Source: Bacteroidota bacterium | Lineage (GTDB): Bacteria > Bacteroidota > Bacteroidia > JABEUT01 | Direction: 5' to 3' | Assembly: GCA_013289165.1 (NCBI GenBank) | Contig: JABDAL010000005.1 | Location: 846 to 64,845, forward strand | Length of the DNA: 64,000 bases | Made by a program: the position numbers and the translations under genes | Notes under the pieces: generated by a model | Database searches by the model: none | Told to the model about the DNA's origin: nothing | Seen by the model: only the letters and a program-made list of their open reading frames with translations | In this document: positions 35,843 through 41,321 of the stretch, piece after piece | Numbering within the stretch: position 1 is the stretch's first letter | Layout: each line of letters opens with the position of its first letter

Positions 35843-37766
35843 ATGAAAAAATGGTATCTACTCGTTGGGCTTTCTATTTTTAGCTATTCTTTTTGTTATG
35901 CCCAAAATGGAATTATTACGTCGGTTGCAGGGGAAAATACAGGGAATAATGTATCCGCTATTTTTGGCATTAATCCTTTTAGTATGGTACCTGATAATAA
36001 AGGCAATGTATATATAGCCGATGCTTCCAACCACCTTATTCATAAGTTAAATATTGCCAGCGGTATATTGACAGTTGTTGCCGGAAATGGGAGTTATGGA
36101 TATTCGGGCGACGGAGGGATGGCAACAGATGCACAACTTAATTATCCTGTTGCATTAGCTTTAGACAAATATAATAACCTATATGTAGCTGATGAATCGG
36201 ACCAATGTGTTCGTGAAATTAATTATTCAACGGGCATAATTAGCACTGTTTCGGGGAATGGATATTGGGGATTCAGTGGAGATAACGGGCCTGCTACGGC
36301 TGCCAATTTGAACAGCCCGGTTGCTATTGCCTTTGACACTGCAAATAACTTGTATATATCCGATTACAATAATAACCGCATACGTAAAGTTTCCGCTTCC
36401 AATGGTATTATTAATACCCTTGCCGGAACAGATTCCACAGGGTATAACGGTGATAATATTCCTGCCACATCTGCATGGCTGCATAGCCCTGCCGGAATTA
36501 CCCTTGACAAAGCAGGTAACATTTATTTTGTAGACCAGAACAATTGTCGCATACGAATGATAAAGGCTTCGAATAATACTATCTATACCCTTTCAGGCGG
36601 AAAAGCAGGATTTTCAGGCGATGGCGGCCCTGCCACTAAAGCACAGTTCTGGTACCCCCTGGGAATTGCTGTTGATGCATCCGGCAATGTATACATTGCC
36701 GATACCTACGAAAACAGGGTTAGAAAAATAACTATCTCAACGGATACCATACGAACTATTTGTGGAACCGGAAATGGAATATTCTCAGGCGATGGAGGAC
36801 CTGCCAGTTCAGCAAACTTATTTCAGCCTCATTACCTCTCATTTGATGCATCAGGAAATCTATATATAGCCGATATGGGTAATAACAGGATAAGAGAACT
36901 GCTTGCATCAAATAATACCATCACTACTTTGGCAGGAGACGGCATGCCCGGATATAATGGAAACAACATTTCTGCTACCACCTCCCAGCTATCAAACCCT
37001 ACCTATACTGCTTCGGACGATTCCGGTAATATCTACATAGCCGATAATGGTAATAATATGATAAGAGAAATCAATTACCGTACCGGAAACATTCTAAAGA
37101 TTGCCGGAAATGGAATAGGCGGATTTAGCGGTGATGAGGGGCCTGCCGGAAAAGCACAGTTATCCGGCCCTAATGGAATAGCTATAAATGATACGGGCAA
37201 TATATTTGTTGCTGATGAGTATAACAACCGGATACGGGAAATAAATGCCTCCACTAATACGATAGCAACTATGGCAGGTATTGGAAATGCAGGTTATTCG
37301 GGCGACGGAGGCCTTGCCAAAAGTGCCGAATTCTATAATCCTGTTGACATTGCCTTTGATACAAGCGGTGATATGTTTATTGCAGACATGATAAATAACC
37401 GGATACGGGAAATAAATGCAACTACACACCGGGTTAAAACAGTAGCCGGAAATGGATATAATGCAAAAAACTATGGAGGAGGATTTAGTGGTGACGGGGG
37501 AGCAGCTGTTTCAGCAGAGTTATACCAACCCCAGGGAGTTGTAGTTGATAAATCAAACACCTATCTATATATTGCCGATACATGGAATGACAGGATACGA
37601 AGAGTAAACCTAAAAACAGGTATTATTACTACGGTTGCAGGCAATGGCACATATGGATATACAGGCGATGGCGGTCCTGCCTCGTCGGCTGAACTTGGTA
37701 TTCCAACATCTGTTGCCTTAGATGCCAATGGCAATTTATATATCGCTGACTTTTACAATAATTTGG
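35843..37766 (+). pseudogene. NHL-repeat T9SS cargo protein, 5' portion (interrupted by insertion after 37766)
   Basis: About 11 repeats of YSGDGGPA..A.L..P.GIA.D..GN.YIAD..NNRIR. The reading frame runs into the element and stops after 12 foreign codons. Confidence 0.85.
37759..37766. repeat. 8-bp target-site duplication TAATTTGG (left)
   Basis: Identical octamer at 41314-41321, immediately outside the inverted repeats. Confidence 0.85.
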
Positions 37767-37816
37767 GGCAACTAGTCAGCGTTTGGGACAAGGTGAATTA
37801 TTAGAAATGAACGGGG

Positions 37817-38035
37817 ATGAAATATCCAACTAAATACATACATGATAATTGGATATGGTGGTTAATTACCCCTATACCTATAATAATTCATAATATGAAA
37901 CAGGAATTTATGGGTTGGGAAGGAGGATATAAAGACACGCATGGGAATAACATCCCCTTAACCCGTAAAACATTACGACGTTTATTTAAAGCAATGAGTA
38001 AGTCAACCTCTTGCAGGATTAGCTATTCTTCTTAA
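37817..38035 (+). CDS. hypothetical protein (72 aa) in cargo element
   Basis: ORF only. Converges on and overlaps a 58-aa minus-strand ORF (38019-38195). Confidence 0.3.
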   Translation: MKYPTKYIHDNWIWWLITPIPIIIHNMKQEFMGWEGGYKDTHGNNIPLTRKTLRRLFKAMSKSTSCRISYSS

Positions 38036-38309
38036 AGAATACCCTTATCTCAATAAATTCATTTGATATGCTAAACTTTCGGTTAGGATGTTTTTTTTCT
38101 TCTTGTTTGAGAAACTTCGACAATTCAAACGGAATTTCACCAGATGTAATTTTTATTAAATCAGCTTTTGTCTGTGTAATTTGGTCTTCATTCATGGTTG
38201 ATATGAAAATACTTAACTATTTATTCTGGAATATTATTATTGATATAGGGGTTTATGGATTATGTGGGAAATATACAAATGCCTATCTATTAGGGGCTAT
38301 TCTTGGATA

Positions 38310-38624
38310 TTATTTTTTTTGAAAATGTGATATTATGATTCCTAAAAGAATACCAATAATGACTAAAAACAATTCCCATATTCGTAAACTCCATTTTATT
38401 TTAAACACAAAATATCTTCGCTCTTTCCATTTTCTTATGAATAGCTCTTTTTGGAAATACCAATATTCTTTACTTAAAGTATTATACCATCGAAGTATTT
38501 TCACTTTACTTCCTTCCCCATATAGAACCTCTTTTCTAACCTCCCAGTTTATATTGGTTGATACATGGAAGTCTTTATTACCATTTTTATCAGTTACAAT
38601 AAAAAACACATTTTTCTCTTTCAT
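38310..38624 (-). CDS. hypothetical protein (104 aa) with C-terminal TM anchor
   Basis: K/E-rich soluble part plus WELFLVIIGILLGIIISHF. The antisense ORF 38335-38634 looks non-coding. Confidence 0.45.
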   Translation of the reverse strand: MKEKNVFFIVTDKNGNKDFHVSTNINWEVRKEVLYGEGSKVKILRWYNTLSKEYWYFQKELFIRKWKERRYFVFKIKWSLRIWELFLVIIGILLGIIISHFQKK

Positions 38625-38661
38625 AGTTGGTTGATTTTAGAAGGTTGATGACTATGGACTT

Positions 38662-38692
38662 AGGCGGTACTACGAATACCGCCTTTTTTATT
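38662..38692 (+). terminator. intrinsic terminator (plus-strand sense) inside the cargo element
   Basis: AGGCGGTA (38662-38669) pairs with TACCGCCT (38677-38684), followed by TTTTTATTTT. Confidence 0.5.
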
Positions 38693-38715
38693 TTATATAT
38701 TAGGTAAAAATTATG

Positions 38716-38892
38716 TTATTCTTTTTTAAGCATTTGAGTTAATACCACTACCGCCATTACCCCTGCCCCATATCCAAAAAAATATCCGATAAAAGTACTT
38801 TCTTCTTTTAATATAGGCACATATCCTACAATAAATACAAATAGTAAAATACCAATAATACGCCACAATTCAAACCTCTCTTCTTTTCTCAT
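38716..38892 (-). CDS. unlisted small two-TM protein (58 aa), ATGA-coupled to the beta-barrel gene
   Basis: Hand translation gives MRKEERFELWRIIGILLFVFIVGYVPILKEESTFIGYFFGYGAGVMAVVVLTQMLKKE. Its ATG overlaps the TGA stop of 38889-39575. Confidence 0.4.
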   Translation of the reverse strand: MRKEERFELWRIIGILLFVFIVGYVPILKEESTFIGYFFGYGAGVMAVVVLTQMLKKE

Positions 38893-39822: not shown

Positions 39823-39932
39823 CACAAATATAGAAATATTTTATCTTTGACCTTTATAAAACAAAAAACCCCGCTGAATGCGAGGTGTCCTGTTGTAGTA
39901 TCTTGTACTGAGAACACAAATATACTGCAATT

Positions 39933-40421
39933 ATGGACACCACGAATAATTATTATCTATGCCCTATTGGAGAACAGCCAGACATTGAAACACATTTAAG
40001 GAATTTATATAAAGAAATGAAGAAGGAATTAACGGAACGAGGCAGGGCAATTATTGATGTGGTATTGTTTACGCAGAGTAATAAAGCTATTAAATTGAAA
40101 GCATTATTAGATACAGGTTCACGGGAAAGTTTTTTGAGCGATAAGTTTAAGGACTTTGATTTTGTCCAAACTCTTTATACCCATCCTTGTGTTCACTTGA
40201 ATAATCAAATAGTAACAAGAGATTTGTACCAATCAAATATTAAGATACCGGCTATATCAGATTTAATAAACATTTTTTACTTCTGTTTTATTGGGCATAA
40301 TTATGAAAATGACTACGATAACATAGACCTTATTATAGGTACAAGGTTTATGGATTATCTCGATTTTAAATATAACAATCCATATAAGCAATTCAGTTTA
40401 GAATACCATATTTCTGTATAA
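39933..40421 (+). CDS. retropepsin-like (clan AA) aspartic peptidase-like protein, 162 aa
   Basis: ALLDTGSRESFLS (D-T-G-S active-site signature) and a distal DLIIGTRFMDYL (hhG.D/F.L motif). Confidence 0.45.
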   Translation: MDTTNNYYLCPIGEQPDIETHLRNLYKEMKKELTERGRAIIDVVLFTQSNKAIKLKALLDTGSRESFLSDKFKDFDFVQTLYTHPCVHLNNQIVTRDLYQSNIKIPAISDLINIFYFCFIGHNYENDYDNIDLIIGTRFMDYLDFKYNNPYKQFSLEYHISV

Positions 40422-40661
40422 TTCCTCAGAAATTTATATAACTTTGTCTTATGAAGAGTAAGAAACCCGTTAAGGGCAAGAAAAGAGCCAATAAGTATGA
40501 ATCAAAACTTATTATCAATGGCTCTTTCGATGATGTTATAAAAGCTGCTATGAGTGGCAATCCGGTAAGTAAAAAGAAGAAGTAACTATAATAAATGATG
40601 AGGGGCAGAATTTGCCGTTCCACCCCTCTGCCACGATTATAAACCCTTAAATCAATTAATC

Positions 40662-40928
40662 ATGGAACAATTGGAAGTTAATGTCGAAAAAGACAGTTAC
40701 GAAAAAATCAAACAGTCAAAGGGTTTTGTTAAACTTATAATAACAATACATACTACCACGGATGGTGTACATGGAGTAAAAGATATATTTCTTATTGTAC
40801 CATCTGCTTCAATTTTATATATTACTGATGTAGATAATGTCTATCATGGTGTTTTAAATTCAGAGTTATCCTCTGAAATAAATAAAAAGTATCCTCATCG
40901 GGATAGACCGTATATTCAGGAAATATAA
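40662..40928 (+). CDS. hypothetical protein (88 aa)
   Basis: ORF only; 5-nt gap to the next ORF. Confidence 0.4.
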   Translation: MEQLEVNVEKDSYEKIKQSKGFVKLIITIHTTTDGVHGVKDIFLIVPSASILYITDVDNVYHGVLNSELSSEINKKYPHRDRPYIQEI

Positions 40929-40933
40929 TAATC

Positions 40934-41212
40934 ATGGAAGATAAAGAAATAACCCCTGAACAAATAGCTGTTGAAGCATTTTCTAAATGCCTCATGACAG
41001 AAGCTCATTTGAATGCTTTTACGGTAACTTTTATGGGCTTTTTGAAAGAAAATTATCCTGAACATTATGATAAGTTTTATAAATCATATAAACATAACCT
41101 CATAAAGTCAACTGGCGATGTTATTGCAAACTCCGTATGCGTTCCGCCAAATGAGAAGCCTCAAGCAATAATTGGGTTATTAGCTGCTTTGACAGAAAAG
41201 CCTTTTTCTTAG
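40934..41212 (+). CDS. hypothetical protein (92 aa)
   Basis: ORF only. Confidence 0.4.
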   Translation: MEDKEITPEQIAVEAFSKCLMTEAHLNAFTVTFMGFLKENYPEHYDKFYKSYKHNLIKSTGDVIANSVCVPPNEKPQAIIGLLAALTEKPFS

Positions 41213-41313
41213 GGAGTTTTTTTTTAATTATTCTGATTTTCATTTGAGTGTTCTTTTTGTCTGTGATTAATTTATAACCTGCCATGCCATGTCCCGAATG
41301 GTGATTAGTTGCC

Positions 41314-41321
41314 TAATTTGG
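41314..41321. repeat. 8-bp target-site duplication TAATTTGG (right)
   Basis: See 37759-37766. Confidence 0.85.

Follow-up and report, generated by a model that had tools for sequence, protein, structure and literature searches.

Insertion sequences (ISs) with passenger genes and mobile insertion cassettes (MICs), the latter mobilised by a cognate transposase, are both recognised classes of elements, as presented in PMC3129680, which cites Siguier 2009 and De Palmenaer 2004 for them. One example is MIC231, derived from IS231 of Bacillus cereus (De Palmenaer et al. 2004, cited in PMC3129680). Members of the IS1595 family that carry passenger genes are referred to as transporter ISs, or tIS (Siguier, Gagnevin and Chandler 2009; the concept is cited in PMC3129680). 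Target-site duplications (TSDs) of IS1595-family elements are usually 8 bp long, and the ends of the related Merlin/IS1016 group start with 5'-GG (PMC8101967). In the case of ISEc69, also of the IS1595 family, the duplicated 8-bp target is AT-rich, and an IS1595-family composite transposon, Tn7052 (ISEc69-mcr-2-pap2-ISEc69), has been described as well (PMC7835479). Here, we compare these systems with a 3547-bp element found in a 64-kb stretch of Bacteroidota DNA, which was analysed as a whole and is referred to as the window (Table 1).

An NHL-repeat gene split by the element

The gene interrupted at 37767-41313 encodes an NHL-repeat protein secreted by the T9SS, and the insert divides it into two parts. 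The ORF called for the 5' part runs on for 12 extra codons within the element to a stop at 37804, and the C-terminal fragment carries the Por_Secre_tail domain (PF18962). The earlier note had proposed that deleting 37767-41321 would restore the reading frame. Indeed, joining 35843-37766 to 41322-41788 gives a single stop-free ORF of 796 aa in which the NHL repeats are unbroken. We identified eight uninterrupted orthologs of this restored protein (793-797 aa, 64-74% identity, 100% coverage), which have the T9SS tail and align with it without gaps over the junction (YIADFYNNx/VRxV, the slash marking the junction). In other words, none of the eight orthologous genes ends or begins at the insertion point; all of them run through it. 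They correspond to the uninterrupted NHL genes that the same note had suggested looking for. Upstream of the interrupted gene there is a Peptidase_C10/T9SS gene, which is syntenic in the closest ortholog whose context was examined.

The terminal inverted repeats (TIRs) of 27 bp are imperfect, matching at 22 of the 27 positions, and their similarity ends after position 27. Both begin with GGCAACTA, i.e. with 5'-GG, so that the element has the 8-bp TSD as well as the TIR start expected of the IS1595 family. The TIRs, the TSD and the length of the element had all been proposed beforehand, and every coordinate was reproduced. A degenerate 24-nt form of the terminus occurs in the window at the two element ends only (0 expected from 100 shuffles). 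In addition, inverted pairs were screened within 10 kb, requiring a perfect 7-nt terminal seed and a match of at least 20/27. Only the pair belonging to the element reaches 22/27 and only this pair has an 8/8 flanking duplication; the flanking duplications of the other pairs do not exceed 5/8, and none at 7/8 was obtained in 30 shuffles. Two independent assemblies match the sequence exactly, Logan SRR8422341 over 38630-41847, including the right junction, and ENA ERZ27253777 over 39853-40575. The insertion had been suggested to be recent, which agrees with a perfect TSD, two intact gene halves and an orphaned C-terminal part that displays no excess divergence.

Table 1. Positions in the window of the element, its ends and genes, and the interrupted host gene
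Feature	Position	Strand	Remarks
NHL/T9SS gene, 5' part	35843..37766	+	codons 1-641 plus one base
Left TSD copy, 8 bp	37759..37766	.	sequence TAATTTGG
Whole element, very probably non-autonomous, 3547 bp	37767..41313	.	32.4% GC versus about 40% in the flanks
Left TIR	37767..37793	+	GGCAACTAGTCAGCGTTTGGGACAAGG; L004 and L011 have homologous outer ends
58-aa orphan ORF, putative	38019..38195	-	no family matches
104-aa orphan ORF, putative	38310..38624	-	hydrophobic C-terminal segment
58-aa membrane protein	38716..38892	-	ATGA overlap with the upstream gene
228-aa cargo protein	38889..39575	-	signal peptide; passenger gene conserved in the element family
Structured leader, about 190 nt	39576..39770	-	precedes the 228-aa gene; candidate cis-regulatory RNA
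162-aa orphan ORF	39933..40421	+	divergently transcribed
44-aa Lys-rich ORF	40451..40585	+	homolog of an incomplete ORF on the left margin of L011
88-aa orphan ORF	40662..40928	+	weak, sub-threshold matches only
92-aa orphan ORF	40934..41212	+	orphan
Right TIR	41287..41313	-	read inward GGCAACTAATCACCATTCGGGACATGG; reverse complement compared with the left end
Right TSD copy, 8 bp	41314..41321	.	TAATTTGG; perfect match to the left copy
NHL/T9SS gene, 3' part	41322..41788	+	last NHL repeats and T9SS C-terminal sorting domain

Cargo genes and the absence of a transposase

The cargo consists of orphan genes throughout. None of the nine ORFs of the element could be assigned a function, and none has a match in Pfam or NCBIfam. 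In particular, neither database detects a transposase domain in them, and tblastn with two IS1595 transposases found no transposase remnant within the element (best E-value 2.7), which bears out the earlier claim that the element encodes no such enzyme. Consequently, it does not qualify as an autonomous IS1595-family IS, a class that requires a transposase. A genuine IS1595-family transposase is encoded at 735-1913 and had been put forward as a possible helper. This role is unlikely, since the enzyme shares 34% identity with that of the relatives discussed below and is not accompanied by similar ends. Apart from the ends of the element, no terminus-like sites were found near 735-1913 or elsewhere in the 64-kb window, nor did this stretch yield a cognate transposase.

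The main cargo gene, coding for the 228-aa protein, is under purifying selection (dN/dS about 0.25). Homologs of the protein are P0002 (60-66% identity) and P0124 (42%). Its structural model features a signal-peptide helix followed by about 8 long strands. It is therefore plausible, as had been supposed, that the protein is a beta-barrel, possibly of the outer membrane, although the pLDDT of the model is only 39. The membrane protein at 38716-38892 (dN/dS 0.31) is 79% identical to residues 1-58 of a 121-aa protein from a related element, L004. Because only the first 58 of those 121 residues are matched, the membrane protein is truncated in the window. The 162-aa ORF had been labelled retropepsin-like on the sole basis of a DTGS tetrapeptide, and we found nothing to sustain the label: there was no match in Pfam (E<=0.1, except for a spurious one to Rotamase_2), NCBIfam or PHROG, no sequence match in the PDB at E<=10 and no homolog in 5.8 billion clusters. 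The model of this ORF has a pLDDT of 34. The ORF occupies the place where the relatives have their transposase. On the other side of this position, the 44-aa Lys-rich ORF represents a second common passenger, its alignment with the partial ORF of a second related element, L011, scoring 51 versus 26.7 ± 4.5 for shuffled sequences (0/5000 as high).

The structured leader preceding the 228-aa gene is kept in all three elements seen (3/3). It displays 17 compensatory base pairs, its folding z-scores range from -3.3 to -6.7, and it has no match in Rfam. One might speculate that the whole family is a dedicated vehicle for the conserved operon under a new leader RNA of ~190 nt, perhaps a riboswitch or an attenuator, and we regard this idea as doubtful. 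If this were true, the leader would constitute a new class of cis-regulatory RNA residing on IS1595-type transposons of soil Bacteroidota. The conserved structured leader is the one component of the element that could prove new.

Relatives and origin of the element

We looked for relatives of the 228-aa cargo gene with a word index that covered 5.8 billion cluster representatives, standing for about 15 billion proteins, and with HMMER run exhaustively on 1.84 billion representatives. Only two clear homologs were returned. Both adjoin a divergently oriented IS1595-family transposase, and no other transposases were seen on their contigs. In L011, the transposase is 321 aa long and reaches 200 bits with the NCBIfam model transpos_IS1595 (cut-off 75); on a 9.2-kb JGI contig (3300050821) it is 306 aa long and has PF12760+PF12762. 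The earlier note had called for a search for transposase-bearing relatives with the same termini, and the relatives found do have a homologous terminus: on the cargo side of the transposase, L004 and L011 share the outer end GGTAACTAT[C/A]AC[T/C]ATGTTGGGACA (GGYAACTA..GGGACA type). With one end readable per relative and the opposite one beyond the limits of the contigs, this outer end is like the right end of the window element at 20/24 positions. L004 and L011 are 90% identical over the last 60 bp and their homology stops exactly at the outer end, outside of which the flanks are dissimilar and AT-rich. L004 also has a GC content of 33.2% versus 39.3% in its flanks, a contrast similar to that of the window element. 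Past the first 24-27 bp, the ends of the window element are unlike the 60-bp ends conserved among the relatives, and for this reason the cognate enzyme may be of a different sub-lineage from theirs. No second copy of the cassette was found in the window, by exact-protein look-ups, in GTDB representatives or in IMG/VR, and a search for the termini gave no real match in 185,579 species-representative genomes or IMG/VR. The exact proteins of the element were found in the context of the window only; the related elements add two other flanking contexts. With this single copy, the earlier proposal that the element family is still active is not supported.

Taking into account the TIRs and the TSD, the lack of a transposase, and the association of both cargo and terminus with IS1595 transposases in the relatives, we consider it very probable that 37767-41313 is a non-autonomous derivative of a DDE transposon, namely a MIC-like cargo cassette with IS1595-type TIRs, presumably moved in trans. 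It would be a member of a small, low-GC element family. Members bearing a transposase would encode an IS1595-family enzyme divergently from a passenger operon that consists of the structured leader, the signal-peptide protein (the candidate beta-barrel) and the small membrane protein. The transposase and the neighbouring 189-aa gene are absent from the window copy, in which the orphan 162-aa ORF takes the place of the transposase, and this copy probably originated through loss or replacement of the transposase. Since there is no transposase in this copy, its movement must have been catalysed in trans, presumably by a cognate transposase of the IS1595 family supplied from another locus. The insertion would have proceeded by cut-and-paste or replicative DDE transposition at the AT-rich 8-bp target TAATTTGG, duplicating the target and splitting the NHL-repeat gene.

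It is possible, but rather unlikely, that, with the same ends and mechanism, the order of events was the opposite, i.e. that the cassette is ancestral and an ordinary IS1595 element has inserted in or beside it in L004, L011 and the JGI contig as a nested guest. L004 and L011 do have an inner degenerate subterminal copy of the terminus (ATGT.GGGACAA..TATATTTG), which is located 30-60 nt upstream of the transposase start and oriented like the outer end, which is what the IRL of a nested IS would look like, and the window element has no such inner site. L004 and L005, which come from independent assemblies, both break in the transposase N-terminus, as would be expected for a repeat of higher copy number. 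However, the inner site is devoid of the terminal GGYAACTA block, and neither a matching second end nor a TSD of a nested IS was found in L011. Furthermore, the arrangement of transposase and cargo is kept between relatives with only about 42% cargo identity, which argues for a long-standing unit and against chance nesting.

Ends that start with GG and TSDs of 8 bp also occur outside IS1595, and only one terminus is seen in the transposase-bearing relatives. This might suggest that another family with 8-bp TSDs, such as ISL3 or IS66, mobilised the cassette and that the IS1595 link of the relatives is coincidental. We consider this improbable, since both known clear cargo homologs directly adjoin an IS1595-family transposase in the same divergent layout, the homologous terminus is on the cargo side and those contigs have no other transposase. 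Similarly, no ORF of the element has an assigned function and the 162-aa ORF sits at the transposase position of the relatives, which could be taken to mean that the element is autonomous and that an orphan ORF (e.g. the 162-aa or the 228-aa one) is an unrecognised transposase. This seems very improbable. Against the 228-aa protein in this role speak its signal peptide, its predicted richness in strands and its occurrence alongside a genuine transposase in the relatives; the 162-aa orphan has a very low-confidence model and lacks any signal of a nucleic-acid-binding or catalytic domain; and both are far below the length of known DDE transposases, the type of enzyme to which TIRs combined with an 8-bp TSD point. 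Finally, although the source is apparently a metagenome-assembled contig and there is one copy, it is hardly credible that the locus is not mobile and results from chimeric assembly, or from a gene pair that is split by nature and has repeats by chance, given the exact restoration of the frame, the gap-free orthologs, a TIR and perfect TSD that are unique and absent in shuffles, the identical right junction in the independent Logan assembly and the homology of the terminus to the ends of related elements.

Comparison with known systems

As a cargo cassette that lacks a transposase, the element is textbook-clean: it has TIRs and a TSD, the host gene is restored exactly when it is removed, and the orthologs of that gene are uninterrupted. 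It ties such a cassette to passenger-carrying ISs of the IS1595 family from uncultured Bacteroidota, whose mobile elements are poorly catalogued, and adds a data point on the continuum between insertion sequences and transposons. There is also a practical aspect, as annotation pipelines keyed to transposases will overlook such cassettes and wrongly annotate the split host gene as a pair of genes.

MITEs are non-coding, TIR-bounded, usually multi-copy elements of a few hundred bp at most (under about 0.6 kb). The window element resembles them in its TIRs, in its TSD and in its lack of autonomy, a transposase having presumably to be supplied in trans; however, its 3547 bp, its conserved protein-coding genes under purifying selection and its single copy set it apart from MITEs. 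With Tn7052 it has in common cargo presumably moved by an IS1595-family enzyme and an AT-rich 8-bp duplication, but in Tn7052 a complete IS copy lies on each side, whereas the window element is flanked by 27-bp ends only. As for tIS, which include the subgroups named ISPna2+ and ISNwi1+, L011 and the JGI contig, each read at one end at most, probably belong here: they join an IS1595-family transposase (Zn-ribbon and DDE_Tnp_IS1595), passenger genes and an IS-type end. These relatives share passenger genes and end sequence with the window element. Nevertheless, its orphan passengers are unrelated to the described tIS cargo and, because a transposase is absent, it is a derivative rather than a tIS.

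The closest counterparts are MICs. The element has IS-type TIRs and a TSD around coding sequence not related to transposition, and no transposase. In these respects it is like MIC231 and other MICs, as outlined in PMC3129680, as it also is in having the TSD of the parent family and in its presumed mobilisation in trans by a cognate transposase. It differs from them in its parent family (IS1595), its host (Bacteroidota) and its size, 3.5 kb with about 9 ORFs being larger than typical; one copy is known, whereas further copies with different TSDs are expected of a MIC. Overall, the element is a clean but fairly ordinary case of a known class, the mobile insertion cassette.

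The insertion and the interrupted NHL-repeat gene

When re-read from the sequence, all coordinates of the earlier note proved correct, including the ends of the element, its target-site duplication (TSD) and its length of 3547 bp. The two terminal inverted repeats (TIRs) are identical at 22 of 27 positions and their resemblance ends past position 27; both ends follow the pattern GGCAACTA[AG]TCA..GGGACA. The window contains no further site for this terminus motif, even at 3 mismatches, and none when 9 mismatches are allowed against each known terminus variant (three in all). We also screened the window for inverted pairs, considering all those at most 10 kb apart that have a 7-nt terminal seed in common and match at 20 or more of 27 positions. 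Only the TIRs of the element reach 22/27, and only they are flanked by a duplication without mismatch (8/8), every other pair having 5/8 at most; 7/8 was reached by none in 30 shuffles.

Excision of 37767-41321 joins the ORF at 35843-37804 to that at 41309-41788 in one 796-aa frame (junction sequence GACTTTTACAATAATTTGGTCCGTGAGG), in agreement with the restoration claimed earlier. In the restored protein the NHL periodicity is unbroken and a T9SS sorting domain (PF18962) is found at the C-terminus. A search with this protein returned, besides the window's own truncated product (P0004, 653 aa), eight full-length orthologs. These are 793-797 aa long and 64-74% identical at 100% coverage, and all have the T9SS tail. 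The orthologs align without gaps across the junction, the restored YIADFYNNL/VREVN corresponding to YIADFYNNV/VRQVN and similar sequences (slash, junction). In the closest ortholog with context examined (contigs L007-L009) the upstream neighbour is the same as in the window, namely a 739-aa Peptidase_C10/PKD/T9SS protein (window counterpart, 33587-35809), and the DNA is uninterrupted at the insertion site. That orthologous NHL genes might naturally end or begin here, a possibility raised in the earlier note, is thus removed by the eight orthologs and the ortholog DNA running through the site. The element is an insertion into a once-intact gene.

Identity in the C-terminal part, divided by that in the N-terminal part, comes to 0.74-0.83 for the window protein against the orthologs and to 0.73-0.91 for ortholog-ortholog pairs. 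Since the former is within the ortholog range, the orphaned 3' fragment shows no sign of extra decay. This and the perfect TSD fit a recent insertion, for which the two observations provide no date. The NHL gene itself is part of a run of large T9SS-secreted proteins (window 31300-37766 and 41322-41788), in which a 738-aa protein is followed by a 740-aa Peptidase_C10/PKD protein and then by the NHL protein. In the relative (L007 5752-10388), synteny extends to the Peptidase_C10-NHL pair, and the downstream neighbours differ.

Cargo genes and transposase-bearing relatives

The GC content of the insert is 32.4% compared to about 40% in the flanks, and its ORFs form two divergent blocks (see table). 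None of them has a significant match in Pfam, PHROG, PADLOC or NCBIfam, and tblastn with two IS1595 transposases found no transposase remnant in the insert; therefore, the element is truly transposase-less, as had been proposed. The label "retropepsin-like" for the 162-aa ORF is not supported, its sole basis being a DTGS tetrapeptide: the ORF has no family match, is an orphan among 5.8 billion protein clusters, gave an empty PDB sequence search and has a structure prediction with pLDDT of 34. The low-confidence model of the 228-aa protein (pLDDT 39), as poor a basis for fold searches as that of the 162-aa ORF, has a signal-type helix at the N-terminus and about eight long predicted strands, making a beta-barrel plausible; a PDB sequence search gave no match. 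The best among the cargo's sub-threshold matches in PADLOC, PHROG and NCBIfam, that of the 88-aa ORF to Avs1a (AVAST type 1 MBL-fold hydrolase; N-terminal region), is weak and probably spurious (PADLOC E=4e-4, 17.6 bits; NCBIfam 11.6 bits, cut-off 420). A sigma-70 promoter scan gave results no better than shuffles.

Features of the window element and of related metagenomic contigs
Feature	Location	Strand	Sequence or remark
Left TIR	window 37767-37793		GGCAACTAGTCAGCGTTTGGGACAAGG
Right TIR	window 41287-41313		reverse complement reads GGCAACTAATCACCATTCGGGACATGG
TSD	window 37759-37766 and 41314-41321		TAATTTGG; abuts both TIRs on outside
58-aa membrane protein	window 38716-38892	minus	overlaps 228-aa ORF
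228-aa protein	window 38889-39575	minus	
104-aa ORF and 58-aa ORF		minus	minus block of insert
162-aa ORF	window 39933-40421	plus	
44-aa Lys-rich ORF	window 40451-40585	plus	
88-aa ORF	window 40662-40928	plus	
92-aa ORF		plus	plus block of insert
Leader	window 39576-39770	minus	
Leader	L004 200-401; L011 1822-2027		
P0002	JGI contig 6482-7108	plus	
306-aa transposase	JGI contig 5251-6171	minus	PF12760+PF12762
P0124	L011 2028-2693	plus	
321-aa transposase	L011 740-1705	minus	200 bits, NCBIfam transpos_IS1595 (cut-off 75)
L004 end	1893-1919	minus	GGTAACTATCACTATGTTGGGACA; downstream of cargo genes
L011 end	3617-3643	minus	GGTAACTATAACCATGTTGGGACA; downstream of cargo genes
Inner degenerate copy	L004 117-160; L011 1722-1765		ATGT.GGGACAA..TATATTTG

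Homologs of the 228-aa protein were sought in a word index of 5.8 billion cluster representatives and by exhaustive HMMER of 1.84 billion representatives. Both searches combined produced no more than P0002 (60-66% identical, according to the alignment used), P0124 (42%) and one marginal repeat protein, and a metagenome scan with the cargo-protein alignment added nothing beyond the contig already known. P0002, on a 9.2-kb JGI contig (JGI 3300050821, 9218 bp), and P0124, on the metagenomic contig L011, are each encoded divergently from an adjoining IS1595-family transposase. Two further contigs that overlap with this JGI contig, L004 and L005, begin within the transposase N-terminus; the latter and the N-terminus of the L011 enzyme are 90% identical. 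These are independent assemblies (L004, JGI; L005, ENA, k141) with contig starts 63-91 nt into the transposase N-terminus, and such breaks are expected if, in the communities concerned, the transposase part is a repeat with more copies than the cargo part.

A like terminus in transposase-bearing relatives, for which the earlier note suggested a search, was seen at one end of each: the cargo-side end of both L004 and L011 is homologous to the window's right end (20/24 positions matching, with two 1-nt indels). L004 and L011 are 90% identical over the final 60 bp and their homology terminates precisely at the terminal GG, beyond which the flanks are unlike each other and AT-rich (ATTTAAAA and TATATAAA), resembling the TAATTTGG of the window. 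Within L004 the GC content is 33.2% in the element part vs 39.3% outside. The window's ends diverge from those of the relatives past about 27 bp, as judged from one end per transposase-bearing relative. Distant IS1595 relatives on Bacteroides and Phocaeicola plasmids (~44% identity) yielded no clean, comparable termini.

Three modules are common to the window and the relatives: the 228-aa gene with its leader, the small membrane protein and the 44-aa Lys-rich ORF. The shared 228-aa gene is under purifying selection (dN/dS ~0.25). The membrane protein has 79% identity to its relative, being 58 aa long in the window vs 121 aa in L004 (1025-1390). Its homology ends at 58 aa, the cassette being rearranged or decaying downstream of that point. 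The 44-aa ORF is also found at the left edge of L011 (1-65, minus), on the far side of the transposase position, with a KYExKLxIxG core and a score of 51 vs 26.7±4.5 in shuffles; it may encode a small basic protein belonging to the element family. ORFs of 40 and 44 aa are listed for the JGI contig too.

It is possible that the cassette is ancestral and that the IS became nested within the relatives. In favour of such a history, the subterminal end sequence recurs in both L004 and L011 as an inner degenerate copy that precedes the start of the IS1595 transposase by 30-60 nt, is oriented as the outer end and lacks the terminal GGYAACTA block; the window element has no such inner site. Two possible readings of the inner copy are a nested IS's IRL and a transposase operator. 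As to an assembly artefact, exact matches to the window are present in two other public assemblies (38630-41847 in Logan SRR8422341 and 39853-40575 in ENA ERZ27253777) and the former covers the right junction, so this source of the element is unlikely.

A candidate leader RNA

The leader that precedes the 228-aa gene, about 190-200 nt long, is conserved in all three elements. A single extended nested hairpin is common to 3/3 of them (z-scores -3.3, -5.5 and -6.7), and compensatory changes occur in 17 of 47 consensus pairs compared to 8.2±2.0 in shuffles (0/500), slid-alignment controls giving 1-3 compensatory pairs. Numerous G-U pairs speak for the operon's sense strand. The invariant motifs, AGCGTGGG ... 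GCCCCACGCTGA ... GGGGC, would allow alternative pairing. Rfam has no match for the leader, which we consider a candidate for a new cis-regulatory RNA; with three sequences and a structure taken from the same alignment, the evidence for the fold is suggestive only.

Mobilisation and place among known elements

The IS1595-family transposase at window 735-1913 (+), put forward earlier as a possible helper, is genuine, with 392 aa and an NCBIfam score of 158 bits. There is no indication that it is the helper: it is only 34% identical to the L011 enzyme, lacks GGCAACTA-type TIRs and has no recognisable or convincing TIRs around it. It occurs in one genomic context only. Upstream of it, a 13-nt direct repeat, GGCGTCCGCACGC, is present twice (550-562 and 714-726). 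The window, protein look-ups, GTDB representatives, the metagenome scan and IMG/VR yielded no second cassette copy, so the still-active element family of the earlier note is a possibility only. In GTDB species-representative genomes, the strict TIR pattern had 0 matches and the degenerate pattern 1; this match, from an Acidobacteriota MAG of 55% GC, lacks an inverted partner, and one match is near the chance expectation. IMG/VR scans with the TIR, the leader motif and the transposase gave no match.

The data are best explained if the window element, transposase-less and linked to the IS1595 family, is a MIC-like (mobile insertion cassette) non-autonomous member of a small IS1595-type passenger-carrying family; we infer that the cassette was moved in trans. 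An 8-bp TSD and imperfect TIRs starting with GG are the typical product of IS1595-family DDE transposases (PMC8101967), and the IS1595-family ISEc69 has an AT-rich 8-bp TSD (PMC7835479); the ~27-bp imperfect TIRs with a GG start and the 8-bp AT-rich TSD of the window are alike. According to PMC3129680, both ISs with passenger genes ("transporter ISs", tIS), first recognised in the IS1595 family (citing Siguier 2009), and transposase-less MICs moved by a cognate enzyme (citing De Palmenaer 2004) are established categories. The window element resembles the latter in having IS-type TIRs and a TSD without a transposase. The earlier interpretation is essentially right, and the element belongs to a kind already known, being an IS1595-family derivative of MIC or tIS type.
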